From a virus: a stretch of DNA of 64,000 nt. Every line of letters starts with the position of its first letter. Within the stretch, counting starts at the first letter, position 1. The stretch is from positions 35,806-99,805 of IMG/VR virus record IMGVR_UViG_3300009068_000001. One strand, given 5' to 3'. The position numbers and the translations under genes were made by a program. The notes under the pieces are model-generated. The model was not told the DNA's origin. It was given only the letters and a program-made list of their open reading frames with translations, and searched no databases. Positions 6,285 through 42,906 of this stretch are shown here, one piece after another.

Positions 6285-6554
6285 TTAATCCACCCTGTTT
6301 GGCAAACCGCGTCCTTGACGTGGGGAGATGCCTACTAGTATTTGCTCTGTGGCAAGAGATATGGTAAGGCTTACAAATGTAGCGGCTAAGGTATAGACAA
6401 CTAGATATAGTGGTTTAGTATTTAAATTAAGGCATGCAAGTAAACTGACTATTAAAGCTAACAGTCCTCGCCATTTACCCAACTGTTTGATTAAGCTTTC
6501 TACAGCAGTCAATATACACGCTGTAGCTAATCCTGCAATAAGTACTATGCCCAT
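6285..6554 (-). CDS. small membrane protein, about 3 TM segments (holin candidate)
   Basis: Three hydrophobic stretches, basic C-terminus, last gene of the tail operon. Confidence 0.45.
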   Translation of the reverse strand: MGIVLIAGLATACILTAVESLIKQLGKWRGLLALIVSLLACLNLNTKPLYLVVYTLAATFVSLTISLATEQILVGISPRQGRGLPNRVD

Positions 6555-6563
6555 AGATCTATT

Positions 6564-9500: not shown

Positions 9501-9788
9501 TACATCAGTAATCGTGTCTGTAAAACTTGTTTTAATAGTTGAGTAGGTTCCACCATCAAGAATAATGCCGTTAGTGGGATCATCTAAACTTCCTGAATAA
9601 CTTTTAACTAAGACCCAGTGTGTAGGGCCTGGATCATTAGGGTCTGGGACGATAGGGTCCCAGACAACTTTAATTTTTTGATAGTCGTTTGAAGACGCAA
9701 AAATATTAGAGTTATAGTAAACACTTACTACAGAAGTTACGCCGTAACGTACTCCTGAACCGTATCGTCTAGTACCATACTTTGCCAT
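6564..9788 (-). CDS. baseplate wedge/tail protein with repeated carbohydrate-binding-like domains
   Basis: Follows baseplate J; P2 gpI-like segment (YKGTSLGL); about 4 N.SFE..W repeats typical of CBM4/9-like modules. Confidence 0.7.
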   Translation of the reverse strand: MAKYGTRRYGSGVRYGVTSVVSVYYNSNIFASSNDYQKIKVVWDPIVPDPNDPGPTHWVLVKSYSGSLDDPTNGIILDGGTYSTIKTSFTDTITDVEDLEVSYSIWLFNGSGWKFCGTSYAILVGNKTSLAKISNWLPKAWLNPVDNVGEGLSNADTNSLVTTLGVFSFMYDYMRVQGSILANSLDPFYTPSSLLNAKTTSLGLQYEAALGDVYNRSIAATGNIVNSYKGTSLGLTIYTTALTHWKAQYSLGHNMLLDYNDSSFEESIGRWGVSSGTLTSTTYSLAGISAPTPFTDLTSPVRSQGIGKLVTAATTAITMSLPASGLDIKTNGIPISGGTRYVFSGYARRTAVATNVSAVITWYDQFGISLGSTSAGTVLTTTTSFAEFVSLSDSGRNGKLSPLTAKFAKITLTVTPSAATSNIVYFDMFQFAEPEHSFMYEDARKIYVNVGGEKENYFFNPEMEYGLSSWTALNGSLSQDSVTTAALVHGTKVGKLTSTATGTAGFISDWVAIEPGQEIIASAYILGSAARTMKVRLEFSNQSTKELQSAVLSDVDGQYYSTDTYFVDSDPFTLSTTVPTQVYVAGITPPFSKDAGNPLVKVSFYSTDNVAGDNYWLDGGILEKSSVVDTFFSGDGGEAITNPVTQKYYAPADCKWEIKEVYNYVSNSGFELNTTDWTAGSGTLTRITSDTGGLGPKYGTYFGKLTYSSTGSLSGIAHLGFAAIGGEDFIISMYVRKAAATYTLGTNTFTINTAESADWKRIHTVVQLTAGQTTVPFTVSIANTVGSTSTYFHIDGVHAEYGRVINQYLDTTLGSTFAISNPITSGKTIWAGKVQSVGGGKSSYFSNYNTKISRLYDTLGNFMPIGANWGINAGLDSATYEDLPGAKIPASSFETNLNGWIAVNSTLARKIAAGTLLADNVTHGQGYCRVTTAGSSSAKPFGLKTGKIYLNPDAGYYSSIAVRPVNSDSLGSYSLVVDYYDLNDNVIVVYQDNLTNNKTTNSKDSTGANNAVITTAARTQTATITHTERWAYVGNSFPVSSITGAAYAIVSITFSPTTYVAGQAFDIDRVVFRE

Positions 9789-20067: not shown

Positions 20068-21852
20068 TTACGCTGTAGCGTTTCCGGTTAGTTGTCCAAT
20101 TTTAATGACAACGAACTCTGCTGGGTATTCAAGAGCAACGCCTATTTCAATGTTAACTCTACCGGCTTGAATTTCGGTAAAGGGATTGTTAGTATCATTG
20201 CATCGCACATAGAATGCTTGACTTGGGTTTGTTCCACGTAAACCACCAGCTGTCCAATAAGCAAGTAGGAAGCTGTTTAGTGTAGTGTTAATTTGAGACC
20301 AAAGATTTGCATCATTATTCTCAAAAAGAGCAAACGATGTTAGATCATTCATAGACTTCTCAATGTAAATCAAAGAGCGTCGAAGATTGATATAACGATT
20401 ATTAGGTGTATTATCAATAGTACGACCGCCCATGATAACAATGCCTGCACCAGGAACCTGACGAATAGCATTAATAGGGTCTACGCTTGTATTGATAGTG
20501 TCTAGCTCAGCGTTAGTAAATAGGTGCTCAGTAGCTAAGGCAAGAGCCATAACATTTTGAAGACCTGCTGGAGTCTTAGATGGGCCACGGCTTGCATCTG
20601 TAGCAAGGTACTGACCAACAACACCAGCGCCTGGAGCTTGTAGGCGAGTTACGCCAACGCTCTTAGTTGCATCTGGGATGCTATACCATGGGTAGTAAGC
20701 TGCAGCAATGTTTCCTGCGGTACTTCCAGCAAAGATAGCTGTTGTAGCTGTAACTTGATCTTGTGCTGCAGAAACTGATAGTCCAGAAGGAGTATCAATA
20801 ACAGCAAAGCAATCTGTACGACCAGCAGCATAGATTACAGCATCGCCGTGAATCTGTGCAGTTAGTGTACCAGATGCAGCATATGGAGCATCAGGTGCGT
20901 AAATAACCAATGGGTTAATTACAGAATCAAATGTAGTCCAAGCTGTTGAGTAATCTGTACGACCAGGGGTTCCACCGTCAGCACCACCTGCAAGTGATGT
21001 AGGAGAAACAAGTACTCCAGGAGACTTAGTAGCATCAAAACCTGCTGTAAGAACTGTAATAACAGAGCTAGGATTAGAGTTAATAATTGAACGCACAAAG
21101 TTTCTGTCTGTAGAAGACATGCTTAGATCAGAATAAGATTCTACCAAGCTAGTTACAGAAGTTCCACTAGTTGTGGTTGTCTGGTAGACCTCTAGACCAA
21201 AACGGCTAGCAGATCCTGCAGCTACAATCTTAACTGCGTAGTTGCTAGACCAAGATCCTGGGCTAACTGCGTTGACAGTAAATACTGGTGCAGAAGCTAC
21301 AGTAGTTACTACAGTAGCTGTAGCAGATGCGCCGGTTACGGCAGTACCTGTAGCAGCGCTTGTAACAGTAAACTGTGAGCCTGAACGAGTTGCAATAACT
21401 ACGTTAGTTAAGTTAAATGCTGTTGTTGAAAGACCAGTAATAGATACGGTTTGTCCAGCAGCAAAAGTATTTGTAGCTGTGTAAGTAATTGTGCCAGAGG
21501 CTGCAGAAGCTGCAGTTACGGTAGCAGTAGCGGTGGTTGTAGTTCCTGTACCATCGTTAATTACTAGAGCACCTACAGCAGAACCTGTTGCAATAACACG
21601 CTTTACATATAGGTCACGGCCGCCATTAGCAAAAAAGTTATAGGCAGCCCAAGTGGTTGGGTATGAGTCGTTTAATCCACCAAAAGCTTTAACAAAATCT
21701 GTCCAAGTACTTACTAGTACAGGGGCAGTTGTGTTGCCTTTAGGAAGAGCTCCAGCAAATGCGCCAACAGCGTTTGCAGTATTTGCAGGCTGTACAGCTT
21801 GTTGCAGAGCTACTTCTTGGATATAGACTCCGGGACGGGCAAAGTTTGCCAT
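20068..21852 (-). CDS. tail sheath protein
   Basis: RPGVYIQE..FFANGG..YYPW..GGRT..YINLRR..FENN..PAEFVVIKI. Confidence 0.95.
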   Translation of the reverse strand: MANFARPGVYIQEVALQQAVQPANTANAVGAFAGALPKGNTTAPVLVSTWTDFVKAFGGLNDSYPTTWAAYNFFANGGRDLYVKRVIATGSAVGALVINDGTGTTTTATATVTAASAASGTITYTATNTFAAGQTVSITGLSTTAFNLTNVVIATRSGSQFTVTSAATGTAVTGASATATVVTTVASAPVFTVNAVSPGSWSSNYAVKIVAAGSASRFGLEVYQTTTTSGTSVTSLVESYSDLSMSSTDRNFVRSIINSNPSSVITVLTAGFDATKSPGVLVSPTSLAGGADGGTPGRTDYSTAWTTFDSVINPLVIYAPDAPYAASGTLTAQIHGDAVIYAAGRTDCFAVIDTPSGLSVSAAQDQVTATTAIFAGSTAGNIAAAYYPWYSIPDATKSVGVTRLQAPGAGVVGQYLATDASRGPSKTPAGLQNVMALALATEHLFTNAELDTINTSVDPINAIRQVPGAGIVIMGGRTIDNTPNNRYINLRRSLIYIEKSMNDLTSFALFENNDANLWSQINTTLNSFLLAYWTAGGLRGTNPSQAFYVRCNDTNNPFTEIQAGRVNIEIGVALEYPAEFVVIKIGQLTGNATA

Positions 21853-24320: not shown

Positions 24321-24548
24321 TTAAGCTCCTACAATTGGAGGAGTAAAAGACTTAGTTGTTTTGTTGTATGTCCAACCCGGGTAGATATCACTATTAGTGT
24401 CATTCTTGATATCTGTAATATCTACAATAGTAGGTTCACTTAAAAGAATTGCGGCTAGACGATCATGAGTATGTAAAATATCCACTACCTGCCCATCAAT
24501 AATAAAAGCAATTTTATTAAATGGAATTTCGGATGCGTTTCCGGTCAT
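24321..24548 (-). CDS. small protein, fibre-assembly-chaperone-like
   Basis: IAFIIDGQVV..PGWTYN..FTPP. Confidence 0.55.
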   Translation of the reverse strand: MTGNASEIPFNKIAFIIDGQVVDILHTHDRLAAILLSEPTIVDITDIKNDTNSDIYPGWTYNKTTKSFTPPIVGA

Positions 24549-27166: not shown

Positions 27167-28162
27167 CTAAAGTGCGTATCGAATAACTACTAGTCCTGGT
27201 CCACCAGCTGTGTGATAATTTGGCTTACACACACCTGGAATATAATATTGATTGGTACTTTGAGGTGCGTTTGGAGCCTCAGCATAGTAAGAAACATCAT
27301 TACCTGTAGTAGTTGTACCTGAAGTTACTCCGCCGACATATCCTGCACCACCGCCCCCAGCTGAAGAGTAGTAATCACTTCCACCACCGCCACCATAGAA
27401 ACCAGCTCCACCGCCACCGCCACCATAAGTGCCGTTATTAGACATAGAGCTCCCGTCTCCTCCGCCACCAAAACCACCTAGTTGACGGGTGTTTCCAGAA
27501 GGAGATCCATACCCACCGTATAGTGCGCCTCCAGCTTGGCCATCACCATAGCCACCACCAGTGTCAGGACCAAAAGCACCACCAGCAGATTGAGTTCCTC
27601 CATAGCCACCTACACGTCCAGTACCAATAGGTCCTCCACGATTATCGCTATAACCACGGTTACCTGTAGTACCGCCACCTGCACCACCGTTAGCAGCAGA
27701 GCCGCTACCTCCAGAACCACCACCACCGCCAGCTGCAATAATTAAAGCACGTGCTTGACCTGTGGCATCAAATGTAACTGTAGAGCTTCCTGAGAATACG
27801 CCGCTTAATCCTCCGCCACCCCCAGCATACCCTGCTATGTTAGAGCCTTTAGATCCGCCGCCTCCTACAATAACTGCGTAGTCTTGAGCAGAAGCAATAG
27901 TTAAAGTACCTGTTGAATACCCGCCAGAACCACCGGAAGATTGATCACCACCACCGCCAGCTGCACCCCAGCAAAAAATTTCTACTGTTATTGGCTTTCC
28001 TACAGAAAACGTAGCTTGACCAACAGTAGAGAAAGTATGTATGCGATATCCATTTGCTACAGTAATTGTTCCACCAGTAACGGGTGCGCTAAGATGATCC
28101 CAAGACAAAGATCGTTTTGTTCCTGATGCAGAACTTGATGTTGATAGATTACGAATTCCCAT
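27167..28162 (-). CDS. glycine-rich fibre tip / receptor-binding protein
   Basis: GYRIHTF..WGAAGGGG..poly-Gly..GLVVIRY. Confidence 0.75.
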   Translation of the reverse strand: MGIRNLSTSSSASGTKRSLSWDHLSAPVTGGTITVANGYRIHTFSTVGQATFSVGKPITVEIFCWGAAGGGGDQSSGGSGGYSTGTLTIASAQDYAVIVGGGGSKGSNIAGYAGGGGGLSGVFSGSSTVTFDATGQARALIIAAGGGGGSGGSGSAANGGAGGGTTGNRGYSDNRGGPIGTGRVGGYGGTQSAGGAFGPDTGGGYGDGQAGGALYGGYGSPSGNTRQLGGFGGGGDGSSMSNNGTYGGGGGGAGFYGGGGGSDYYSSAGGGGAGYVGGVTSGTTTTGNDVSYYAEAPNAPQSTNQYYIPGVCKPNYHTAGGPGLVVIRYAL

Positions 28163-29094
28163 TAGAATGTCACCGAACCTGTTCCAGCAGTAAATTTATA
28201 GACCTTGTATCCGGCTCTTGTTGTTGTGTCTAAGGTGTATGTTAGACCGCCACCAATAGATGTAATATTTGGGTACGTATTTGGGTACGCAACAATCACG
28301 ACACCAGAACCACCCGCTGCTCCATACCAAGCGTTAGTTGCTTGAGGGTTTGAGTTATCCCAAGTTCCTCCACCACCACCGCCTCCAGTGTTTGCATCTC
28401 CTGCAGTTGGTGCAGCAGCAGTTCCTGAGTAAGGCTGACCGCCTCCCCAACCTCCGCCACCTAAAGACCGCTTCATTGGTACATAACCCGCATAGGCACC
28501 CCAACCTCCGTTAGAGCCAAGACCTTCGGTTCCTCCGTTACCGCCACCACCATAGTAAACATACACACCTGTTATTGAGTACGCTAGGCCGTCTCCGCCA
28601 ACAGGACCAGGACTATTTGATTCTAATGTTCCTGACTGATAACCTTTTAGCCCGGCTGCTGCAGCACCGCCACCACCGCCACCATCAAGGTGATTATTAT
28701 CTACTCGGTATTGAACCCCGCCAGCGTAACCATTTCCAGAAGCAGCCCCATTAGAAAAACTACCACTGGAACCATTACCGCCTACAGCAGTTACTGTAGC
28801 AAAAACAGAAGAGGCGCCCTGTTGTCCATTACCACTATTGCCTGGAACTCCAGCAGCCCCACCTGCACCAACCGTTACAGTAAATGCTCCTGAAGGTTTT
28901 GCAAAGGCGGCGTTATAAGTTACTTGGCCTGCGCCACCGCCACCACCACAATTATACCCTCCGCCTCCGCCTCCACCAACTACTAACAACTCAAAAGTTG
29001 CAGGGGCAGAGACTTGGGCTGATTGATCAAAGATAGTTTGCGATTTTGTAAGACCTCGAACTACAGATGAGGTAGACGCACGAGAAATAGCCAT
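28162..29094 (-). CDS. glycine-rich fibre tip / receptor-binding protein
   Basis: ELLVVGGGGGGG..ANTGGGGGG..GSGVVIVAYP..YKVYKFTAGTG. Confidence 0.75.
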   Translation of the reverse strand: MAISRASTSSVVRGLTKSQTIFDQSAQVSAPATFELLVVGGGGGGGYNCGGGGGAGQVTYNAAFAKPSGAFTVTVGAGGAAGVPGNSGNGQQGASSVFATVTAVGGNGSSGSFSNGAASGNGYAGGVQYRVDNNHLDGGGGGGAAAAGLKGYQSGTLESNSPGPVGGDGLAYSITGVYVYYGGGGNGGTEGLGSNGGWGAYAGYVPMKRSLGGGGWGGGQPYSGTAAAPTAGDANTGGGGGGGTWDNSNPQATNAWYGAAGGSGVVIVAYPNTYPNITSIGGGLTYTLDTTTRAGYKVYKFTAGTGSVTF

Positions 29095-29112
29095 GCTGGT
29101 TATTCCCCTCTG

Positions 29113-29448
29113 TTAGGATATTTCGGAACCGAAAGCCTGGAATGTAAGTGATGTAGCTGCTGATGCGTAGACCTGAATTGAGTTCAAGGTAGCAAGAGTA
29201 ATGCCTAGTGTAAGGGCTACAGTGTCATTCGCAGCAATCGTTGTGTCGTATGCAATGTAGTGCTCAGAAGCTAGAGTAGTTCCTGTTGCTGGCTTAATAG
29301 CAATGCGGAATGTCTTAGCTGAGCTTGTGATGTTGCAAACTGTGATAGTAGATACTACTGCGCTAGTAGACGATGGAACTGCGTACAGTTCTTCCATCGT
29401 AGTAGCGGCAGAGTGTTTTCTACCAAGTACCTTATAAGCTGTTGCCAT
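29113..29448 (-). CDS. fibre adaptor (A3)
   Basis: YKVLG..LYAVP..VVSTITVCN..IAYD..FGSEIS; similar to 34248 and 37383. Confidence 0.65.
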   Translation of the reverse strand: MATAYKVLGRKHSAATTMEELYAVPSSTSAVVSTITVCNITSSAKTFRIAIKPATGTTLASEHYIAYDTTIAANDTVALTLGITLATLNSIQVYASAATSLTFQAFGSEIS

Positions 29449-29451
29449 TGT

Positions 29452-30918
29452 TTATGCTCCCATCAGCATGAAGATTTGAGGATTTGGATCTGTAGTAATT
29501 GCGGCCCATGAAGCTGCAGTACCATTGGTTGTTAAGTAGTTTCCGCTCTGACCTGTCTGTGTAGGCAAAGCATCAACAGTAGCCCAAGATACAGCACTTC
29601 CATTAGTAGTAAGATACTTACCACTATTAGAAGTCTGAGTTGGAATAATTCCGCTGATTTGAGTTTGAATAGCGCTTGTGACGCCAGACAAGTACCCGAT
29701 TTCAGTATTGGTTACTGAACCAATTGTAGCACTACCCACAACAATGCCTGCATATGTAAGTCCGGCTTCGCCAAAGTTTACAGTTGAGGTTGGCTTTGTT
29801 GTAGCATCTTTAAAGAATTTAACTAGTCCATCGGATGCGTCACGAAGAACTCCAGCAAATTTACGCTTAGTTGTAACTTCTGCAGTTCCCGCTGGAGATA
29901 CCGCAGCCGAGGTTACGTTAGCGTTGGTCTTATCAAAAGTAAATGTAGTTGTAGTAGGCACAGCCTTGACTACATAAGTTCCGTTAAATGTAGCATCAAC
30001 GCTTCCAACAACCACAATATCGCCAACAGCAAAACCATGAGTTGTAGAGGTTGTTAGGGTAGCCACATTAGATGTAAGAGCTTTGTTAGAAACAGCCTTA
30101 GTAATAGTAGACACAGACGTTGCATACTCTGCAACAAGACCTAGGTCTACAGCATCTGTACGGTTATCGCTACCTACAAAGATTAGAGGATCTGCTACAG
30201 ATAACGTTGTTGTCTGTAGAGACGAGCTTGCCCCACCAAATGTTAAGCTACCTGCAATATTAATATTGCCAGTAATACCCACACCACCAACAACTGTCAA
30301 AGCACCTGTTGTAGGGCTAGTAGAAGGTGTTGCAATATTAATTGCTACGCTTTGGTCAGGAGTAATAACCATTTGACTATTGTTAGAAGCTAGTCCACCA
30401 GCAGCAAAAATAAGTTTATTTTGTGAGCCAGTATCACCAGTAGCTAGCACTAGGTTACCTTGGTCAGTTCCGCCAGCTGCACCAACCATAAATATGTAGC
30501 CGTCACCTTTGCCAGTAATTGTGAAGTCTGGGTCTAGGAAGGCTGAAGAGGTGATACCCATATCAATGTAGCCATCTGAATCGGTTCCATTGTTTGAGTA
30601 GGCAATAAAGTCTGTAGAAGCTGTAGCTGCTGCGCTAGAGTTCTTGAAAGCAATCTGAGCATAGTCAGTAGCTGTAGTCTGGAAAACAGCTACAGGGTTT
30701 GTAAGTGCGGCGGCTGTAGAAAATGTAGAAGCTGCACTACCTACATAAAGAATTCCACTAAAGTTGCCATCAACAAAGGTGCCTCCGCTAGCTTCAGCAG
30801 CGGCAAGTGCCTCAATAGCTTTTGAAACGTAGACAAGGTCTTTAGCGGTAAATAAGGTAGCAGCTAGCGATGAGGCTATCTCCGACTTAACTAAGCCAAT
30901 TTCTGTGGTTAATGCCAT
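29452..30918 (-). CDS. fibre protein F3
   Basis: Paralogue of 32310 and 35485 (GYIDMGITSS, GNLVLATG, STSPTTGAL, RDASDG). Confidence 0.8.
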   Translation of the reverse strand: MALTTEIGLVKSEIASSLAATLFTAKDLVYVSKAIEALAAAEASGGTFVDGNFSGILYVGSAASTFSTAAALTNPVAVFQTTATDYAQIAFKNSSAAATASTDFIAYSNNGTDSDGYIDMGITSSAFLDPDFTITGKGDGYIFMVGAAGGTDQGNLVLATGDTGSQNKLIFAAGGLASNNSQMVITPDQSVAINIATPSTSPTTGALTVVGGVGITGNINIAGSLTFGGASSSLQTTTLSVADPLIFVGSDNRTDAVDLGLVAEYATSVSTITKAVSNKALTSNVATLTTSTTHGFAVGDIVVVGSVDATFNGTYVVKAVPTTTTFTFDKTNANVTSAAVSPAGTAEVTTKRKFAGVLRDASDGLVKFFKDATTKPTSTVNFGEAGLTYAGIVVGSATIGSVTNTEIGYLSGVTSAIQTQISGIIPTQTSNSGKYLTTNGSAVSWATVDALPTQTGQSGNYLTTNGTAASWAAITTDPNPQIFMLMGA

Positions 30919-30945
30919 GTGGTTTCTCCTTGATTCCTTGGGTAA

Positions 30946-31068
30946 CTATACGCCAATATTGAGGGATAGGTCGTCTATATCCCCCTGAATAATTTCAATG
31001 GCTGCATCTACAGCCGCCTTCTCCGCTGGGATGAAGGCTACAAGTCGGTTGCTTAGATATCCTGGCAT
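30946..31068 (-). CDS. 40-aa micro-ORF (not in ORF track)
   Basis: MPGYLSNRLVAFIPAEKAAVDAAIEIIQGDIDDLSLNIGV; TAATG coupling. Confidence 0.6.
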   Translation of the reverse strand: MPGYLSNRLVAFIPAEKAAVDAAIEIIQGDIDDLSLNIGV

Positions 31069-31439
31069 TATGTAGGTATTCCTATCCATTCTTGATTTTC
31101 TTCGTCCCACTCATATGGCAATCCATCATTTGGCTTAGGAACTGGCGGGTGCCAGACACATGTTTCAGTATTTAAAGTCCAAGACTCAAAAGGTTTTGCA
31201 CGGTAAAAAGCATCTAGTGCTGGGTCGTAAATCCCACCTAACGTTGCGTAATTTTTTCTAAAAGGTGTGCCACCTAATATATGAGAACCAGACAAAGTAT
31301 TGTAAGACGTACGCTTACAGGTTAAGCCACGAAACTCTCCGTAGTGCTCTTCCCAATTAATATCACTTTCGTTTTCGTCTTTTCCAACAATAACCTCAAC
31401 GACAACGTTGTTCTCGTCTAAAAATGCATAGTGTGCCAT
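31068..31439 (-). CDS. fibre assembly chaperone-like protein
   Basis: MAHYAFLDENNVVVEVIVG..RTSYN..FRKNYA..WHPPVPKP..YEWDE. Confidence 0.7.
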   Translation of the reverse strand: MAHYAFLDENNVVVEVIVGKDENESDINWEEHYGEFRGLTCKRTSYNTLSGSHILGGTPFRKNYATLGGIYDPALDAFYRAKPFESWTLNTETCVWHPPVPKPNDGLPYEWDEENQEWIGIPT

Positions 31440-32308
31440 TAGAATTTAATTGCCCCTGTTCCACCAGTAAATCGGTATACACGGTAACCACTACGAGTTG
31501 GTTGGTCGTAGCTAAGGCCAGCACCAATAGATGCTAGTGCTGGGTAAGTATTTGGGTATGCAATAACTACTACGCCTGAGCCTCCTCCACCAGAGAAGGT
31601 TCCATTACGCTCTCCACAACCTCCGCCTCCTCCAAGGTTATTTGTACCACTTGTTGCAGTATTGTTGCCACCTTGACCACCGCCGCCAGAACCTCCAGCA
31701 GGAGTGTTGCTTCCTTCTGAGCTTCCTCCACCGCCACCAGCATAGGTAACAGAACCACCAGTTATTGAAGATGCAGCGCCATTACCACCTTGACCACCAC
31801 TATTATTATCTCCATTAGTTCCTGCAGCGCTAGCTCCACCACCACCACCACCAGTTTTATTTGATGAGGCATTGTTAAAGTCTCCACCTTTATTTCCCTG
31901 ACCAGCAGTACCTGATCCACCTGTCCAGTTACCACCACCGGTAGCTGCAGCTCCACCACCAGAACCTCCAGGACGACCAACGTTATTTGCAACTGTGTAG
32001 CACCCACCACCACCGCCACCAGTTGAACTAATTGAGCTAAATGTTGATGGAGAACCATCGTTTCCTTGAAGGTTAGTGGATCCAGTGTTGTTGTAAGCAG
32101 CACCTCCACCACCCACAGTTACAGTGTAATTAGTATCAGGAAGTAAAGTACCTAAGGTAAAAGTACCTGTTCTCATACCTCCAGCACCACCACCACCACC
32201 GTGGTACTGATTAGTAGCTCCTCCGCCACCCCCAGCAACAACTAAGTACTCAACATCTGGTACTTGCGATGCTCCAGAGGCTGCAATAACTCCCAATAAC
32301 AGTGGCAT
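31439..32308 (-). CDS. glycine-rich fibre tip
   Basis: VEYLVVAGGGGG..; C-terminus nearly identical to 28162..29094. Confidence 0.75.
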   Translation of the reverse strand: MPLLLGVIAASGASQVPDVEYLVVAGGGGGATNQYHGGGGGAGGMRTGTFTLGTLLPDTNYTVTVGGGGAAYNNTGSTNLQGNDGSPSTFSSISSTGGGGGGCYTVANNVGRPGGSGGGAAATGGGNWTGGSGTAGQGNKGGDFNNASSNKTGGGGGGASAAGTNGDNNSGGQGGNGAASSITGGSVTYAGGGGGSSEGSNTPAGGSGGGGQGGNNTATSGTNNLGGGGGCGERNGTFSGGGGSGVVVIAYPNTYPALASIGAGLSYDQPTRSGYRVYRFTGGTGAIKF

Positions 32309-32309
32309 A

Positions 32310-34223
32310 TTACGCCACCAAGTTACCGATAAGAAGGAATGTATTAGTAGCAGTTACAATAATTTGAGCAGAGGCCCACTGACCGTTAAGCTTGTACTTA
32401 GAGCCGTTAGAATTTAAAGTGCCGCTTGTTGCAATAGTTAGCTGACCAGAACCTGTTTGTACAACAGTCAATACTGTGCCTTGTGTAAATGTTCCTGTAG
32501 GAATAGTAACTGTGCCTGCTGTAGAACCGTTAGAAGCCAGAATAATTTTGTCTTTATCTGAAGCCTGCAAGGTGTAGGCATTAGAGCTAAATGTAGGTGT
32601 CACATATGTCTGCAGTAGTGGGGCATAGGCTGCAACAGCTGTTGTGACGTCAGAAGTTGTGGCTAATGTTCCATTACTTGAAGGCATAGTAATAACAGCT
32701 GATCCAGAAGTGATTGAGCTTGGAACTGTTACTGTACCTGTAAATGTAGGAGAAGCTAACGGAGCTTTAGCGTTTAGTTGAGTCTGGATTGCAGAGGTTA
32801 CTCCGTCTAGGTAACCAAACTCTGTATTAGATACATTGCCTACTGTGAGTGAAGAGGCCGTTAAAGGACCTACTTGAAGATCCCCATAGACAAGCCCTGC
32901 TTCTGAAAAATCTACTGTAGAGACTGGTTTAGTAGTGGCATCTTCAAATACCTTTGTTACACCATCGGATGCATCTCGAACCATTCCGCCAAATCTACGC
33001 TTTGATGATACGACTGCTGAGCCTGAGGCTGATACAGAGCTAACGTTAGTTGCAGTCTTTGCATAAGTAAAGGTAGTTGTTGTTGGTACTGAGGCAACCA
33101 CATATGTCCCATTAAATGTAGCATCTACACCAGAAACAACTACGTAATCTCCTACAGCAAAGCCGTGAGTAGCAGAAGTTGTAAGGGTTGCAACATTTGA
33201 AGTTAAAGCTTTGTTAGATACTGTCTTTGTAATGGTTGCTACGGTAGTGGCATACTCAGTAACAACGCCTAGGTCTACAAGGTCTGCAGTATTAGAATTA
33301 CCAACAAATACAAGTGGGTCAGTAACTGAAAGATTTGCGGCAGATACTGTGGTTCCTGCGCCACCAAAAGTAATTGTTCCTTGAATAGCAACGCTACCCT
33401 GTACGTTCATATCACCTTGAATACCAACTCCACCAACTACCTGGAATGCTCCAGTTGTAGCAGAGGTAGAAGGGGTTGCAATATTAACTTTAACGTTTGC
33501 ATTTGGAGTAATTGTCATCTGGCTTGTACCAGACTCATAACCACCGGCAGCAAATACAATCTTGTTTTGTGTTCCGTTAGCACCAGTAGCAAGGACTAAG
33601 TTACCAGCACCTGATGTACCAGTAGGGGCTGACATAAAAATATATCCATCGTGTGGGCCAGTAATTCCGTAGGTAGCAGAGTTAAATGTTGCTCCTGTGA
33701 TACCCATATCGATCCAGCCAGCACCATCTACGCCATTATTAGCGTAGGCAATGATGTCAGTTGAAGATGAAGATGAAGCGTTGTGTACTGCAAGCTGACC
33801 AAATGAGTCGTTAGCACTTGTAACATTAAATACACCTGTTGGGCTAGTAAGACCAGCTGAAGTATTAAACGCTGAGGCGCCAGTTCCTACATAGATAATA
33901 GTTGGGGATAGCGAGGTAAATGACGGAGAGCTAGTCCAAGCAGCTGTAGAGCCATTGGTAGATAAAACTTTATCTGCGTTACCTGTTTGAGAAGGTAGAG
34001 CGTTAGTTAGCTGAGCAGCTGGGATCTTAACGTTAGCATCTAGGGTGGCAACACCGTTTGCAACTCCTGCTAGGGCAAGGGTGTCTACAGCGTTAGATAC
34101 CTCAACGGCATCTTTTACGGCCTTGGTAAGAAGTAGGTAGTCCTGAGCGCTTAGGGATACGTTTGCAGTATTAAGCTTGTTTTGCAACGCCGTATTGAAC
34201 GTTGTCATAGTAAATGTTGCCAT
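32310..34223 (-). CDS. fibre protein F2
   Basis: Paralogous core; C-terminal YTLQASDKDK..TFLLIGNL domain. Confidence 0.8.
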   Translation of the reverse strand: MATFTMTTFNTALQNKLNTANVSLSAQDYLLLTKAVKDAVEVSNAVDTLALAGVANGVATLDANVKIPAAQLTNALPSQTGNADKVLSTNGSTAAWTSSPSFTSLSPTIIYVGTGASAFNTSAGLTSPTGVFNVTSANDSFGQLAVHNASSSSSTDIIAYANNGVDGAGWIDMGITGATFNSATYGITGPHDGYIFMSAPTGTSGAGNLVLATGANGTQNKIVFAAGGYESGTSQMTITPNANVKVNIATPSTSATTGAFQVVGGVGIQGDMNVQGSVAIQGTITFGGAGTTVSAANLSVTDPLVFVGNSNTADLVDLGVVTEYATTVATITKTVSNKALTSNVATLTTSATHGFAVGDYVVVSGVDATFNGTYVVASVPTTTTFTYAKTATNVSSVSASGSAVVSSKRRFGGMVRDASDGVTKVFEDATTKPVSTVDFSEAGLVYGDLQVGPLTASSLTVGNVSNTEFGYLDGVTSAIQTQLNAKAPLASPTFTGTVTVPSSITSGSAVITMPSSNGTLATTSDVTTAVAAYAPLLQTYVTPTFSSNAYTLQASDKDKIILASNGSTAGTVTIPTGTFTQGTVLTVVQTGSGQLTIATSGTLNSNGSKYKLNGQWASAQIIVTATNTFLLIGNLVA

Positions 34224-34247
34224 GAGGTCTCCTAAGGTATTCTTGTA

Positions 34248-34667
34248 TTATAGACCAACAAGGGCATAAACTAAGGCTTTATCAGCCTGTGTTTGAGCCG
34301 CTGCTGCTGCTGCCAATGCTGTTTCGTATTCAGTTCCCGATACATTTGTATTATCGATACCTGCTAGTGATACTGATATATCCGCAGAAGAGGTACGAAC
34401 ATAAAGTTTATCATCTGGTTGTAAAGGAAACCGGAAGGTTTCCAAAGAGTTATTTCCTGATATTGGGGAGTTATAAGCAATAGTGGCGTGGTTAGCTGGG
34501 GTTGCATCCTGGCCTGTAGGTATTACCCAAACTCTGATTGTTGCTGCATCAGAAGACTTATTTGTGGCAATTACAGATACAAGGGCAACACGAGAACCAG
34601 TGCGGGTATACAGAAGCGTATCTGTATTAGCCCCTGGATTAGATACTGCTAGACGTGAGATAGCCAT
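34248..34667 (-). CDS. fibre adaptor (A2)
   Basis: Paralogue of 37383..37838. Confidence 0.65.
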   Translation of the reverse strand: MAISRLAVSNPGANTDTLLYTRTGSRVALVSVIATNKSSDAATIRVWVIPTGQDATPANHATIAYNSPISGNNSLETFRFPLQPDDKLYVRTSSADISVSLAGIDNTNVSGTEYETALAAAAAAQTQADKALVYALVGL

Positions 34668-34871
34668 TTAATCCTCCGTAAGAGTAAAGCATGTATCGCA
34701 AATAGGTGGGTCTATAAACACACCGTTTACGTATTGGCCACCCATAAAGGCCTTGTACTCAAAGTCCTCAACAAATGTTGTTGTCTTGTCCAGTCCAAGG
34801 GACAAAAAATGTTCCTTTTCATAAACAATAGTTATATAGTTAGACTCATCTAATACCGCAACTCTTACCAT
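34668..34871 (-). CDS. small fibre-assembly-like protein
   Basis: VAVLDESN..GGQYVNGVFIDPP. Confidence 0.55.
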   Translation of the reverse strand: MVRVAVLDESNYITIVYEKEHFLSLGLDKTTTFVEDFEYKAFMGGQYVNGVFIDPPICDTCFTLTED

Positions 34872-35470
34872 GTTACAAAGTACTCCATTGTTCCGCCTTG
34901 GTTTGAATAAACTGGTCCAGAATCGCTTGGATTATAACCATTTAAAAGGTCATTTGGAAAAGTTCCGCAAGGTTCATACCCCGCACCGATTGACCCGGAG
35001 ACTACGCTACTCCAAGAACAGCTACCTTGTGCAGCATTATAGATGCCGTGTGCTCCGCCGCCGCCCAATATTACTTTTATACCTGTTCCACCAAAATTGT
35101 TTGTACTGCTACTTCCAGTATATCCGGGAAGATTTGTGTTAAATACTTGAGATGAATTACTAAACCTTACAATGCCATATATACCATCTGTACGCCTAAC
35201 AAGAATTTTACTAAAAGGAATACTTTTATCAATTAAGTTTAGCGTTGCAGCAGACCTACTTGTGTTGGCAAATACTTTAATCCAAGCTGAACCGTCAAGA
35301 TAGTTTGCCCCAGTGTAATAAGCAGAAACAGGCTCTGTCATACCCGCAGCATAAAATGAATAGGTACCTGCCGCAAGAGATTGAGCTGCCGCATTAGTCG
35401 GAGAAAACGGATTAAACCCAGCTTTTCCAACTGGGGTTAAAATTTTACCTACAGTTTCAATTAAAGGCAT
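34865..35470 (-). CDS. fibre tip / putative receptor-binding domain
   Basis: Follows F1; short beta-rich domain. Confidence 0.55.
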   Translation of the reverse strand: MPLIETVGKILTPVGKAGFNPFSPTNAAAQSLAAGTYSFYAAGMTEPVSAYYTGANYLDGSAWIKVFANTSRSAATLNLIDKSIPFSKILVRRTDGIYGIVRFSNSSQVFNTNLPGYTGSSSTNNFGGTGIKVILGGGGAHGIYNAAQGSCSWSSVVSGSIGAGYEPCGTFPNDLLNGYNPSDSGPVYSNQGGTMEYFVTW

Positions 35471-35484
35471 AGTAATAACTCTCC

Positions 35485-37374
35485 TTATGCAAACTTAACT
35501 TGTGCACCAAGTACTGTAAATGTTGCCGATGCAGTTTTAATGATTGTAAACGTATAGGCGTCAATTGAGTTAATATTTCCTGCCGAAGGTGCTGTTCCAG
35601 TTTGCCACTTAGGAGTAACAGCTGAACCATCTACTTGGAATACTGTTGGCTTATAAGCTGTAGAACCATTAGTTACCAAGAAAGCTACAGTAGCTGATTG
35701 ACCATTAGCAAGAATTGAGTTAAGGGTTGTTGAACCATCTCCACGGAAGTTGAATGTCCAGTCAGCGGTAGCATTGGATGTGTAGTACTTAACTGCTGAG
35801 GTTGAGAGATCAACGTTAACTGTTCCAGTAGCAGCAGTTGCTGATACGGTAACTGTTTCAGTAGCTGTTGTAAGGTTTGGACGGATTAGCTGAGCTGCTG
35901 TAAGTGGGGCATAAGTAGAAGAAGCTGTTGAAGACTTTAAGTATCCCTGACCAATTACGTATGCAGTAGTTGCAATTTGTGTAGTGTTGGTATCTGTAGC
36001 AGCTGTTGGAGCCGTTGGGATTCCTGTAAGAGCTGGACCGGCTAATGGTGCGTAAGTAGTAGATGCTGTTGCAGATGCTAACTTAGTATCAATCTGTGTT
36101 TGAATAGCAGATGTAACACCATCTAGGTATTGAAGCTCTGTGTTAGAGACGTTTCCAATAGTTGCAGAGGATGCAGTAAATGCTCCCACTTGGAAGTCTC
36201 CGTAGATTAATCCTGCTTCTGAGAAGTTAACTGTAGAGGTTGGCTTTGTTGTTGCATCCTCAAATACCTTAATAATTCCGTCGGATGCATCGCGTACAAT
36301 ACCTGAGTATCTACGTTTTGTAGATGCAGCTGCTGATCCAGTTGCCGCTGCTGAGGTTACGTTAGCGTTAGTTTTAGCAAATGTAAAAGTTGTAGTTGTA
36401 GGCACTGACGCAACTAGGTAGGTGCCATTAAATGTGGAATCTACTCCAGACAAAACTACATAGTCTCCTACATTAAACCCGTGAGTGGTAGATGTAGTGA
36501 TAGTGGCTACATTAGAGGTCAACGCTTTGTTAGAAACAACCTTAGTAATTGTTGCAAATGATGTTGAGTATTCACCAATAAAGCCTAGGTCTACCGCATC
36601 TCCTGCGTTAGCGTTACCAACAAATACTAGGGGGTCTGTTACGGCCAAGTTTGCTGTTGAAACAGATGTTCCCGCGCCACCAAATGTGATTGCGCCGTTG
36701 ATATTTACATCGCCAGTAATACCAACTCCGCCAAGTACAGTAAGGGCACCAGTTGTTGGTGATGTAGAAGGCGTAGCAATATTAATGGCTACGTTGACAT
36801 CTGGAGTAATAACCATTTGAGTATTGTTAGAAGAAAGCCCACCAGCAGCAAATATAATCTTATTTTGTGTTCCTGTGCTATCTGTGGCTAATACAAGGTT
36901 ACCGCGGTCTTCATTTCCAGCAGATGCGCCAACCATAAAGATATAGCCATCGCCTTTACCTGTTGCAGTAAAAGCTGCATCAGCAAAGTTTGAAGATGTG
37001 ATACCCATATCAATGTAACCAGAGGCATCATTACCATTATTTGAATAAAGAATTAAATCAGTAGATGCACTAACTCCAGAGTTTTTATTTCTAAAGGCTA
37101 TTTGTGAAAAGTCTGCGTTATCTACTTCTACTACTAAAGTAGGGTAGGTAAGAGAGGCTGTAGATGCAAATGATTCTGCTGTAGCGCCAAGGTAAATGTT
37201 ACTAGTAACGGTAATATTGTCTACACCATCAGGTGCTACGACGTGACTTACCGCCTCAAGTGCCTTAGCTACATAAACTAGGTCTTGAGCGCTGTACTGT
37301 GACGCCGCAAGCCCAGAAGTAATCTCATTCTTGATTGCGGTAACCTGTGTGGACAGGCTTGAGTAATTTGGCAT
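35485..37374 (-). CDS. fibre protein F1
   Basis: Paralogous core; PALTGIPTAPTA..TQIATTAYV; C-terminal PKWQ.GTAP..IDAYTFTI. Confidence 0.8.
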   Translation of the reverse strand: MPNYSSLSTQVTAIKNEITSGLAASQYSAQDLVYVAKALEAVSHVVAPDGVDNITVTSNIYLGATAESFASTASLTYPTLVVEVDNADFSQIAFRNKNSGVSASTDLILYSNNGNDASGYIDMGITSSNFADAAFTATGKGDGYIFMVGASAGNEDRGNLVLATDSTGTQNKIIFAAGGLSSNNTQMVITPDVNVAINIATPSTSPTTGALTVLGGVGITGDVNINGAITFGGAGTSVSTANLAVTDPLVFVGNANAGDAVDLGFIGEYSTSFATITKVVSNKALTSNVATITTSTTHGFNVGDYVVLSGVDSTFNGTYLVASVPTTTTFTFAKTNANVTSAAATGSAAASTKRRYSGIVRDASDGIIKVFEDATTKPTSTVNFSEAGLIYGDFQVGAFTASSATIGNVSNTELQYLDGVTSAIQTQIDTKLASATASTTYAPLAGPALTGIPTAPTAATDTNTTQIATTAYVIGQGYLKSSTASSTYAPLTAAQLIRPNLTTATETVTVSATAATGTVNVDLSTSAVKYYTSNATADWTFNFRGDGSTTLNSILANGQSATVAFLVTNGSTAYKPTVFQVDGSAVTPKWQTGTAPSAGNINSIDAYTFTIIKTASATFTVLGAQVKFA

Positions 37375-37382
37375 TCTATCTC

Positions 37383-37838
37383 CTAGTCAAAAATTCCCAA
37401 ACCTAATTCTATCGCAATTAGGCGGTTATTTAGTGCGTTTGTTGTGGTAAGTGTGGCTAAGTTCGCAGTATCGGCTATACCGTGAACACTAGTTGTTTGC
37501 AAAAGATGGGCGTCAATAGAGGCTGATCCATCGTACACACCGTTTAATGAAAACGATACGCTTGAAGAATTAGCCCGTACTCTTACAACATCTCCCAGCT
37601 TTATTGCAAACCGGTGGGACTCTAAAGAGTTATTGGCAGGTACTGGTACATCATACAGTATATATCCGTACTCTGAGGCGGTAGTTGCACCTAGTGGGAC
37701 AACCCATACCCTAGCTGTTGCAGCTGATCCGCTCTTATTTGTAACAATTACTGAAGATAAGTATGATGCGTCGGCTGTATAAACTGTTGTGTCTGTGTTT
37801 AAAGTTGGGGTAGATATACCCATTCTCACTACTGCCAT
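37383..37838 (-). CDS. fibre adaptor (A1; start MAVVRMG)
   Basis: Paralogue of 34248; HGIADTANL fibre motif. Confidence 0.65.
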   Translation of the reverse strand: MAVVRMGISTPTLNTDTTVYTADASYLSSVIVTNKSGSAATARVWVVPLGATTASEYGYILYDVPVPANNSLESHRFAIKLGDVVRVRANSSSVSFSLNGVYDGSASIDAHLLQTTSVHGIADTANLATLTTTNALNNRLIAIELGLGIFD

Positions 37839-37839
37839 G

Positions 37840-38169
37840 CTATGCCCCCAAGAACCATGCAGATGAAAGATCTGCTGGGTTAGATAGAGTAGAGTTAACC
37901 CCAACAACGCCAGACCAAGATCCAGAGTTATATACTAGCATAGAATTTGTTGTGGTATCAAACCACAGATCTCCGCTTTGTGCTGTAACTGGGGTGGTAG
38001 AGCTAACATTCATGTACTCATTGGCACGGCTAGTTGTGATCCAAGCCGTTCCTGTATAAACGTATACTGTGGTATCAGTAGTGTTGTAATACAACTCTCC
38101 TGCACGAACCCCGGTAGGGGCTGTAGCTGAGGCTAATAGGTTTAGCGGGACCAGTTGTTTTATCGACAC
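37840..38169 (-). CDS. short fibre protein
   Basis: Two G.L(Y/W)(Y/F)(N/D)TT..VY.G..W repeats; ends WFLGA. Confidence 0.7.
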   Translation of the reverse strand: MSIKQLVPLNLLASATAPTGVRAGELYYNTTDTTVYVYTGTAWITTSRANEYMNVSSTTPVTAQSGDLWFDTTTNSMLVYNSGSWSGVVGVNSTLSNPADLSSAWFLGA

Positions 38170-41829: not shown

Positions 41830-42906
41830 TTAGTTGGTTTCTGCGATAACTACAGATTGATCAGTGATTAGACCAAGACCGTAGATTGCGTACCATGCAA
41901 GAGCGTGCTCACGACCGAAGTCAAGAATACCGCCGTCACGAAGTTCCACTGGAAGTGAAATAGCGTGACCGAATGCGTTGTCTCCAATAAAGATTGCTGA
42001 ATAGCGGTCTGAACCACCATTACCTGTCTTTGTTGCTGGAGTTGTGTATCCGCCACCAGTTGGGTATGAGATAGAAGCTGGATCAACAGCTGTATCTGTG
42101 GTGTATGAAGTACCAGCACCACCAACGACCTTCTGGATCTGAGTTGTTTCGATGAATACTGTGTCATATAGACGACCGATTTCACCTAGCATGAAGTTAC
42201 CTGGAGCTGCGTACTTTGTTACTTCGATGAACTCTGGGTTGTCACGAAGCTTACGGCTCTGGTGTGGGTGCACGAATGCAACATATGTCTCACCAAGGCG
42301 AGGGATGTTCTTTGTAGCAAGTGTCTCTACTGCATCCTTGACTGTCTTTGGTGTTAGGTTGAATGCGCCGGTCATTGAAGCACGTGTTGTGCCCTTTGTA
42401 CCATCTGCGTACCATGCGTTAATAGCTGTCTGGTTTGAACGATCTTCACCGTAAATGACTGAAGATGCAGCCATAAGTGTGTCACGAGCCTGGCCATCAA
42501 GGTAGAGAGCCATGTTACGTCCAAGAAGACGTGATGCTGATGCCATAACGTCATCGAATGATGCGTTAAGTAGGAGCTCTGATACTGCGATTGCGTATCC
42601 GTGCTCAGCAACAGTGATTGAGAATTGCTGTGCTGTCAACGCGTTTGTTGACATACGTACGCCTTCAACCAATGGAGCTGCGAAGCCTAGGTTGTTGTAG
42701 CGCATGAAGTTGATCTGGAGACCAGGTGCGACGCCTAGTTCTGTCTTCTTAACAGCGAACTGTTCGAAGCGAAGGATAGGCATTGACTGGAAAAGAATTT
42801 CCTTAGACCAGATGGTCTGAATTGCTTGTGTAAGCTGGCTATTGGAGCCAGAGTACGCTGTAGGTGCTGCGGCTAAATTGCCGGTACCTGTTACGGCTGA
42901 TGCCAT
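41830..42906 (-). CDS. major capsid protein (N4-gp56-like family)
   Basis: LRFEQFA..INFMRY..EHGYA..YVAFVHPHQSRKLR..GEIGRL..DFGRE..LAWY. Confidence 0.92.
   Translation of the reverse strand: MASAVTGTGNLAAAPTAYSGSNSQLTQAIQTIWSKEILFQSMPILRFEQFAVKKTELGVAPGLQINFMRYNNLGFAAPLVEGVRMSTNALTAQQFSITVAEHGYAIAVSELLLNASFDDVMASASRLLGRNMALYLDGQARDTLMAASSVIYGEDRSNQTAINAWYADGTKGTTRASMTGAFNLTPKTVKDAVETLATKNIPRLGETYVAFVHPHQSRKLRDNPEFIEVTKYAAPGNFMLGEIGRLYDTVFIETTQIQKVVGGAGTSYTTDTAVDPASISYPTGGGYTTPATKTGNGGSDRYSAIFIGDNAFGHAISLPVELRDGGILDFGREHALAWYAIYGLGLITDQSVVIAETN

Follow-up and report, generated by a model that had tools for sequence, protein, structure and literature searches.

Fibre genes and their termini in the window

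The stretch of DNA analysed here, hereafter the window, comprises 64,000 nucleotides (nt), the last 64 kb of a single 99.8-kb contig from an uncultured phage (IMG/VR record IMGVR_UViG_3300009068_000001), and carries a 16-kb module of fibre genes on its minus strand, placed between the genes for the major head protein and the tail sheath (Table 1). This report concerns the ends of the proteins encoded by that module, which pair by class from one gene to the next, both here and across related viral loci. PHROG matches identified the head protein and sheath, as well as a tail tube, a baseplate wedge and a tape-measure-like protein that contains a peptidase domain; given these matches, the phage has a contractile tail. 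A megablast search of 20 kb against GenBank phages gave no extended nucleotide similarity, the only match being 169 nt of the capsid gene to Streptomyces phages.

The module runs in the order P488, P109, A1, F1, T1, s1, A2, F2, T2, s2, micro-ORF, F3, A3, T3a and T3b, where A1 to A3 are adaptors that share what we term the A domain, F1 to F3 are fibres, and the proteins beginning with T are tips; P109 and F3 end in a short hydrophobic peptide that we term a plug. Open reading frames (ORFs) and termini were checked using six-frame ORF lists and our own translations, and every protein end quoted in an earlier note on this DNA was found in place. The fibres are paralogues with 53–58% identity over ~430 residues that differ mainly at their C-terminal ends, A1 and A2 share 44% identity with A3 as a more distant paralogue, and T2, T3a and T3b are paralogous glycine-rich proteins. 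Since F1–F3 and A1/A2 are paralogous, repetition within the window alone could stem from tandem duplication. The gap from P109 to A1 is 1 nt, the micro-ORF is TAATG-coupled such that its ATG overlaps the stop codon of s2, and T3b is ATGA-coupled to T3a.

Pfam holds no family for A1–A3, F1–F3, T1 or P109, T1 is also without a PHROG family, and neither database yielded a family for s1. Two tips match the Pfam family Gly_rich_2 (PF21722) above its gathering threshold of 24.3, namely T2 (E 5e-24, 86.0 bits) and T3a (E 1.9e-16, 61.2 bits), while the match of T3b to ALK_LTK_GRD is weak and below the cutoff. Sequence searches of the PDB with T2 and F1 returned no match.

Table 1. Genes of the fibre module and other features of the window (positions in nt; lengths in amino acids, aa).
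Feature	Position	Strand	Description
Major head protein	41830-42906		PHROG match
P488	38184-39650	-	fibre-like N-terminal half and capsid-decoration-protein-like C-terminal half
P109	37840-38169	-	two beta-hairpin repeats, linker, C-terminal W-type plug ..SAWFLGA
A1	37383-37838	-	A domain (residues 1-102) and long C-terminal helix, end ..IELGLGIFD
F1	35485-37374	-	long fibre; core as in F2/F3; C-terminal phrog_5906 domain, end ..TVLGAQVKFA
T1	34865-35470	-	tip; N-terminal class-1 peptide MPLIETVG
s1	34668-34871	-	small protein after tip; end ..FIDPP.. where z75 has ..FTPP..
A2	34248-34667	-	A domain and shorter helix, end ..YALVGL; no plug-bearing gene upstream
F2	32310-34223	-	long fibre, end ..FLLIGNLVA
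T2	31439-32308	-	glycine-rich tip; N-terminal class-2 peptide MPLLLG
s2	31068-31439	-	small conserved protein after tips, phrog_7759
Micro-ORF	30946-31068	-	40 aa, MPGYLSNR....LSLNIGV; in front of F3
F3	29452-30918	-	shorter fibre; C-terminal linker ..TTDPNPQ, then plug IFMLMGA
A3	29113-29448	-	stand-alone A domain, 111 aa, no helix, end ..FGSEIS
T3a	28162-29094	-	glycine-rich tip, start MAISRASTSS
T3b	27167-28162	-	second glycine-rich tip, start MGIRNLSTSS
z75	24321-24548	-	small protein, follows a tip gene; end ..PPIVGA
Tail sheath	20068-21852		PHROG match
1074-aa protein	6564-9788	-	after the baseplate wedge gene

A hydrophobic C-terminal peptide precedes genes encoding the A domain

To place these termini in a wider set, we used 157 related viral loci, 77 of them retrieved by searching with F1 and the other 80 by searching with aligned A3-type proteins, in which plus-strand ORFs were called and A domains marked by an iterated hidden Markov model. 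Proteins encoded directly upstream of A genes end in ..W[FW]LG[AVS], ..F[LM][LM]MGA, ..LMTMGA, ..F[ML]LGGM or ..FLL[AS]GM, with ..LF[IL]GI, ..[LI]MGA[LYI] and ..AIIFG as further variants, so that the plug can be described as a hydrophobic xxxG[A/V/M] peptide, usually following a Gly/Ser-rich or Pro-rich linker. Scored on unique proteins with one fixed regular expression, the plug is present in 101 of the 131 that precede an A gene vs 43 of 1558 others (odds ratio ~119), counts that are descriptive, as the data are not phylogenetically independent and are inflated by shared ancestry. Ends such as ..SAWFLGA and ..IFMLMGA, which the earlier note had singled out as preceding adaptor genes, do so beyond chance and beyond what plain synteny would give. 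Most of the 43 other matches are long fibres followed by a plug-ending protein of 42–108 aa that itself precedes an A gene. The proteins that bear plugs range from 38 to 1141 aa, and single linkage, a method that over-merges, sorts their bodies into at least 12 clusters.

Plugs and A domains also correspond at the level of subclasses. We defined A subclasses by signatures; single linkage at 45% identity merged nearly all A domains. The subclass of the plug tracks that of the A gene almost perfectly: W[FW]LG[AVS] plugs, found on P109 homologues and on unrelated bodies of 97–406 aa, go with A1-type or GILQV-type A genes (16/16); ..xxMGA, ..xxGGM or ..xxIGx plugs, on fibres and small proteins of 38–1141 aa, precede A3-type genes (73/80); AIIFG plugs go with VVITYT-type genes (5/5); and xMGA[LYI] plugs with ISGVE-type genes (12/21). 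Seventeen loci contain two plug-to-A pairs, and the same plug subclass is used twice in none of them, while shuffling expects 5.4. Co-folding of three copies of A3 with three copies of F3 residues 430–488, using own alignments, gave a score of 0.00; controls were not run and the result counts neither way.

Small connector proteins of 42–108 aa lie between a plug-ending fibre and an A gene in loci L080–L099, L107, L131 and L152. They start with MPAFAIQLRRGT or M[TS][KR]AR[TD].A.N, end in a plug, and are conserved at these two ends only. At L146 (~284-520), the gene upstream of an A3-type gene reads ..SFMLMGA in a neighbouring frame (..TTTATGCTAATGGGCGCATAA), as would be expected after a frameshift or sequencing error or if the ORF had been called wrongly.

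The A domain is a widespread N-terminal module of phage fibres

The A domain comprises ~105 aa. A1–A3 match the N-terminal ~110 positions of phrog_1276 (A3, E 1.9e-10, positions 1-110) as well as an internal segment of phrog_11338, a family with the label 'tail fiber protein' (A2, E 7.7e-7); sequence searches found no relative of A1–A3 in the PDB. A profile built from the three paralogues and searched against 1.84 billion representatives retrieved 3286 cluster representatives at E<1e-3, 1028 of them at E<1e-10. Among the best 150 of these 3286, 54 are stand-alone domains (~109 aa), 27 are tandem repeats of two or four domains, and in 55 the domain forms the extreme N-terminus of a longer protein (~170–680 aa). 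The longer proteins have fibre-like C-terminal parts, two with the Peptidase_S74 or Peptidase_G2 intramolecular-chaperone domains characteristic of trimeric fibres. In 145 of the best 150, the A domain begins within residues 1-5. It is a very common, undescribed N-terminal module of phage fibres that is encoded in the window as separate small proteins. Ten A proteins among the representatives end in a plug of their own, with the candidate socket at one end and the plug at the other, which is what a chainable link would look like.

The AlphaFold2 model of A1 (mean predicted local distance difference test score, pLDDT, 87.8) consists of a nine-strand jelly-roll at residues 2–102 with pLDDT above 95, followed by a helix at residues 104–150 of moderate confidence (pLDDT 51–77). 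The A domain of P0050, a natural protein made up of A domain, spacer and plug, was also modelled confidently; its last 10 residues are coil with pLDDT of ~52–64, which is uninformative as to whether the plug fits into its own A domain. Fold searches of the PDB with the A model gave a plateau of generic jelly-rolls with no match standing out, including YomS (6i5o; Z 8.9, root-mean-square deviation 2.7, 92 residues aligned), the KHP40 cement protein and TNF-like trimers. Many look-alikes of ~105–120 aa were found in BFVD, among them entries from cyanophage S-TIM5, Microcystis phage MaMV-DC and Synechococcus phage S-CAM1 ('tail fiber-like protein') and several described as 'virion structural protein', as given by record annotations that are unchecked.

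In the Actinomycetia phage DSL-LC01 (OQ999401; L159, 430-11072), a 173-aa A-domain protein comes after a 2853-aa glycine-rich protein, which carries the annotation 'ALK tyrosine kinase receptor', and before a 516-aa protein annotated as collagen, whose start, MAVRRLGLANP.., resembles by eye that of A1/A2-type adaptors. There is no plug upstream, the same as for the A2 type in the window.

Tip N-termini follow the class of the upstream protein

At the junction between fibre and tip, the upstream unit is a whole C-terminal domain of ~130–220 aa, of which the peptide quoted in the earlier note is the last strand. The proposal that short terminal peptides pair therefore stands for the plugs and the tips, but not for the fibre ends. 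The unit in F1 is the ~130-residue phrog_5906 domain, which is present on several different, unrelated fibre bodies. Grouping fibres by C-terminal signature, we found that an F1-type end (..T[FY]TVL[GA]..[KR]FA) is followed by a protein starting MP[LIY][LIV]x[TQ].G...GF or ..MLAT[FL]GGGS, and an F2-type end (..F[LV][LV][IV]G[ND][IL][AV]A) by one starting MP[LT][IL][LF]G in 6 of 7 unique cases. Fibres ending ..W[IL]V[YF][GA]....N[FY] precede genes whose products start MP[FIV]..S..RG..G, and those ending ..W..GDL.A precede products with a basic N-terminus and then ..SSAQDNFLEP. A3-type genes are followed across the loci by tips starting M[AGST][IV][SK][RK].., the N-terminal class of T3a; the earlier note had already remarked on the two tips that follow A3 in the window.

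The 147 tips behind these fibres and A genes form 116 body clusters, and tips with unrelated bodies carry class-specific N-terminal peptides of ~12–20 residues. When such tips are compared over residues 2–13, the BLOSUM62 score averages +7.1 for pairs behind the same upstream class and -4.9 for pairs behind different ones, compared with -6.5 and -7.2, respectively, over control residues 61–72. Conversely, where homologous tip bodies stand behind upstream partners of different class, the score over residues 2–13 is only 1.7. One tip body, marked by ..YYRNRYQ[IL], has the start MPLLETRG when the preceding fibre is of F1 type and MPLLFGNT when it is of F2 type; a glycine-rich body with the motif GGYRIHTF occurs with three N-peptide classes, each matching its upstream partner, and the GYRIHTF-type body of T3b is found elsewhere behind other N-peptide classes. 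Exchange is also seen on the fibre side, where F3-type fibres that still have the micro-ORF upstream have acquired an F2-type or ..LNF-type C-terminal domain, and the tip encoded next is of the class that goes with this new domain. Tabulated over the related loci, as the earlier note had suggested, the C-terminal class of one protein and the N-terminal class of the next are clearly associated in a non-random manner that survives body swaps.

A further junction consists of proteins ending ..[DN]GG[ST]x and, next, fibres with an Mtd_N-like start, Mxx[IV]x[IL][RK]R.. (10/21 vs 21/1668; L004, L005, L019, L043, L064, L076, L125, L127, L128 and L147). The small genes z75, s2 and s1 follow tip genes, and their products may be tip-assembly factors; at the end of z75, GGAGCT is the ribosome-binding site of the next gene.

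Predicted helical ends and a micro-protein precede the fibres

The earlier note had also observed that A1, A2 and the micro-ORF product, which it described as ending in an amphipathic helix and a hydrophobic tail, each precede a long fibre, and this order is kept in the related loci. A1-type proteins invariably terminate in ..ELGLGIFD, and the next gene always encodes an F1-type fibre that begins MPNY.. (13/13); A2-type proteins, which end ..LV[GND]L, precede F2-type fibre N-termini. The micro-ORF proved to be a conserved gene of 40–50 codons directly upstream of every F3-type fibre, with a conserved N-terminal end (MPGYL[STN]NR), a conserved C-terminal end ([DE]DL[SQ]L..[GS]V) and a variable middle; we propose that its product would be a two-ended connector in front of F3. 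Some lineages have a separate protein of 83–139 aa between the A protein and the fibre, in place of the helix fused to A1. Adjacency and conservation are what suggest this putative helix-to-fibre joint, the A1 helix itself being predicted with only moderate confidence.

P488 and a cultured relative

The first gene of the module encodes a protein with likeness to both capsids and fibres. Residues 197–334 and 412–488 of P488 align with PDB entry 9nx3, 'Capsid decoration protein' (E 1e-10), residues 153–219 align with 'tail fiber gp9', and the protein matches phrog_2647 'head decoration'; its N-terminus resembles that of P109. A literature search under the code 9NX3 turned up only unrelated papers. 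P488 is a possible base of the fibre system and, because of its match to a decoration protein and the position of the module between the capsid and sheath genes, the fibres might be mounted on the head or neck rather than on the baseplate. Elsewhere in the window, the 1074-aa protein encoded after the baseplate wedge gene is unrelated to the F1–F3 module and may be a separate, baseplate-attached fibre.

The arrangement is also present in phiPsal1 (MG835450; L158), a cultured 31-kb Pontimonas phage whose host is an actinobacterium. After the tape measure and a 'putative tail fiber', its genes follow the order plug, A domain, glycine-rich tip and s2-like protein. These are gp20 (86 aa, end ..ALMLMGG); gp21, which is of A3 type and recorded as 'putative virion structural protein'; an ORF rich in glycine (6336-7240) with the start ..LSIRSLSRS and GGFKYHTF..; and the s2-like gp24. 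As annotated, gp22 and gp23 are poly-Val/Leu sequences of high hydrophobicity that appear to be wrong-frame readings of the glycine-rich tip gene. The stretch examined has a tape-measure gene but no tail-sheath gene, and the plug-socket-tip unit is at the position expected for a tail-tip receptor-binding device.

A model for the assembly of fibres from paired ends

We consider it probable that the module encodes three paralogous multi-protein fibre cassettes, whose separate segments are joined head-to-tail and non-covalently via matched end-pieces. The short C-terminal peptide of three hydrophobic residues, Gly and Ala, Val or Met, held on a flexible linker, would pair with the A domain of the next protein; the C-terminal helix with its hydrophobic tail, whether fused to A1 or A2 or supplied by the 40-aa micro-protein, would pair with the helical N-terminus of an F fibre; the C-terminal domain of each fibre would pair with the first ~12–20 residues of one or more tips; and the helix-less A3 would pair with MAISR-type tip N-termini. 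Mutually distinct subclasses of joint would keep different chains in one virion from cross-connecting. Because the joints come in such distinct subclasses, recombination in or near them could exchange fibre bodies and receptor-binding tips while attachment is retained. The segments are probably trimeric, with a putative 3:3 geometry and stoichiometry, and the site at which the chains attach to the virion is likewise putative.

Of this model, the reading of the paired ends as class-specific, exchangeable junction modules is well supported by comparison among loci: the sequence features, the class-specific pairing, conservation and selection at the protein level, the body swaps and the fused forms are all directly observed. 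The fusions, in which the A domain is carried on fibre bodies or an A protein has its own plug, are Rosetta-stone evidence for the model, as are the micro-ORF and the connectors, in which only the two ends are conserved. The observation generalises widely, and docking is plausible on specific comparative evidence. We hold more tentatively, and with rather less than even confidence, that plug and A domain form a general connector pair with orthogonal subclasses that, together with the helix and N-peptide joints, would constitute an 'assembly grammar' through which uncultured phages of aquatic habitats, in their thousands, could string together and recombine fibre segments, some of them perhaps mounted on the capsid via a decoration-protein homologue; the probable hosts would be actinobacteria, with weaker evidence for cyanobacteria and proteobacteria.

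Several observations weigh against the model of paired ends. None of the eight A2-type adaptors (0/8) is preceded by a plug, the short ISGVE-type adaptors are without one in 8/21 cases, and 43 plug-like endings have no A gene next; because of these exceptions, gene order alone does not define partners. The window encodes two plug-bearing proteins for three A proteins, which leaves A2 and the N-terminal end of the micro-protein without an evident partner. Every count is inflated by common descent and by linkage, since the paired ends are encoded side by side, and the number of independent lineages is modest. Where the gap between genes is 0–4 nt, the Gly-Ala codons of the plug double as the Shine-Dalgarno site of the A gene. 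Binding between paired ends is itself deduced from the pairing of sequences. The earlier note's claim that terminal peptides predict the next gene accordingly holds as a strong tendency but not as a rule, given the plugless A2 and ISGVE types and the intervening connectors; of the orthogonal docking interfaces and swappable parts it envisaged, the class-specific, exchangeable junctions were borne out, while docking is a deduction.

Translation signals and alternative explanations

The overlap with translation signals bears on whether the matched ends are leftovers of mosaic recombination, with crossovers in conserved junction DNA, combined with such signals at gene junctions, with no binding involved, an account that we regard as unlikely. 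It draws on the Gly-Ala codons (GGRGCN; GGA GCA, GGG GCA) that are located 8–12 nt ahead of the following ATG, where many loci, the window included, have GGAG or GGGG, on the many junctions that are ATGA or TAATG overlaps, and on the visibly mosaic fibre genes. Shine-Dalgarno overlap explains part, not all, of the ..GA ending. Where a gap of 9–31 nt contains a GGAG of its own, Gly is encoded by GGC or GGT without any change in the plug peptide; plugs of the ..LMGAL and ..IMGAY classes keep the motif 1–2 residues from the end, displaced from the stop codon; and the hydrophobic positions, which lie 3–6 residues before the stop and are irrelevant to ribosome binding, are conserved while varying synonymously (Phe as TTC or TTT; Leu as CTT, TTA or CTG). 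Because of the other Gly codons, the displaced motifs and this synonymous variation, Shine-Dalgarno overlap was rejected as the sole cause and retained as a contributing constraint. At conserved positions of the tip N-peptides, 37–64% of codon pairs use different codons, so these peptides are conserved at the protein level. It would also be hard for recombination without binding to explain why some A proteins have a plug themselves and why the connectors are conserved at the two ends only. Separately, read-through or frameshift fusion of plug and A protein was rejected, as the stop-to-ATG gaps of 0–31 nt show no preferred frame.

Two further accounts seem to us improbable, more so than recombination and about equally. 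The terminal peptides could be tags rather than joints, read by assembly factors, for which s1, s2 and z75 would be candidates, or removed by processing. Fibre assembly often needs dedicated chaperones, such as T4 gp38 and gp57A or intramolecular chaperone domains, and small conserved genes (phrog_7759 and relatives) regularly follow tips in the window, in related loci and in phiPsal1. Yet the peptide class follows the upstream structural partner and not the presence or type of the small downstream gene, and a structural role fits both the fusion of the A domain to fibre bodies in many relatives and the annotation, albeit unchecked, of BFVD look-alikes as virion structural proteins in several cultured cyanophages. 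Alternatively, the adaptor-fibre-tip cassette could have duplicated in tandem with synteny conserved thereafter, and the termini would carry no special information. The paralogy of the fibres, of A1 with A2 and of the glycine-rich tips agrees with this, as do the close relationship and shared gene order among many of the loci compared. Duplication does not account for the same termini on non-homologous bodies or for homologous bodies whose termini depend on the neighbouring gene, and the pairing holds in distant contigs found via the A3-type gene alone, where the fibres are unrelated to F3, and in the 31-kb phiPsal1.

Relation to known fibre systems and significance

Fibres made of several proteins are well known. 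The long tail fibre of T4 consists of serially encoded segments, gp34, gp35, gp36 and gp37, that are joined end to end with gene order equal to fibre order, and in T2 and S16 a separately encoded adhesin, gp38, which has a polyglycine-rich domain, caps the distal end of the fibre via its N-terminal part. The module described here resembles these systems in its serially encoded fibre segments and separate glycine-rich tips. It differs from them in having three parallel cassettes located between the capsid and sheath genes and not after the baseplate, and in that its glycine-rich tips T2 and T3a match Gly_rich_2; F1–F3, T1 and T2 have no PHROG, Pfam or PDB sequence match that would indicate homology to gp34–gp38.

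Branched receptor-binding protein systems built on an adapter or anchor, with several such proteins mounted one upon another, have been described for the coliphages K1-5/SP6 (gp37 adapter) and G7C (gp66 with gp63.1) and for the Klebsiella phages KP32/KP34/PhiK64-1 (Latka et al. 2019, PMC6872550). Secondary receptor-binding proteins carry conserved, group-specific N-terminal peptides of 7–29 aa, through which they are proposed, and in part demonstrated, to dock to the adapter in K1-5 and SP6 or to a T4gp10-like branching domain in G7C, KP32 and KP34 (PMC6872550); experimental validation is reported (PMC13352976). As in K1-5, G7C and KP32, short conserved N-terminal peptides here begin otherwise variable tip proteins whose distal parts are freely exchanged. 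The candidate socket, in contrast to the T4gp10-like one, is an apparently unrelated jelly-roll of ~105 aa without a Pfam family: A1–A3, F1–F3 and P109 have no Pfam or PHROG match to gp10-like families, and the fold matches listed for the A model do not include gp10. Also unlike K1-5, G7C and KP32, one joint is reversed, pairing an upstream C-terminal peptide with a downstream N-terminal domain; the chains would be several segments deep and include micro-protein connectors; the pairing is one seen in sequence; and, in place of enterobacteria, bacteria from fresh water or the sea are the probable hosts. By sequence or predicted fold, the A family includes phrog_1276, phrog_11338 and aquatic-phage entries (phiPsal1 gp21; S-TIM5, MaMV-DC and S-CAM1) annotated as virion components, but none of the records examined is annotated with a functional description or with the pairing of plug and N-terminus. 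The principle is thus already known from the docking peptides of K1-5, G7C and KP32 and the multi-part fibres of T4 and S16, whereas the parts are undescribed; what is new is the unannotated socket domain, the upstream C-terminal plug, and the micro-protein connectors with several levels of chaining.

Receptor-binding fibres set the host range of phages, yet in most environmental phages their parts are recorded as 'hypothetical proteins' and their architecture cannot be read from the genome. If the model is correct, it would supply rules for linking separately encoded fibre pieces and for recognising exchangeable host-recognition modules in metagenomes, would make multi-protein fibre architecture predictable from sequence, and would correct annotations such as that of the phiPsal1 glycine-rich tip, now recorded in the wrong frames. 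phiPsal1 offers an experimental system, and the joints are testable with peptides and small domains. The docking-peptide principle worked out in enterobacterial phages would be extended to another socket fold and to a C-terminal plug, and the very large 'hypothetical' A family would gain a testable role and simple sequence rules.

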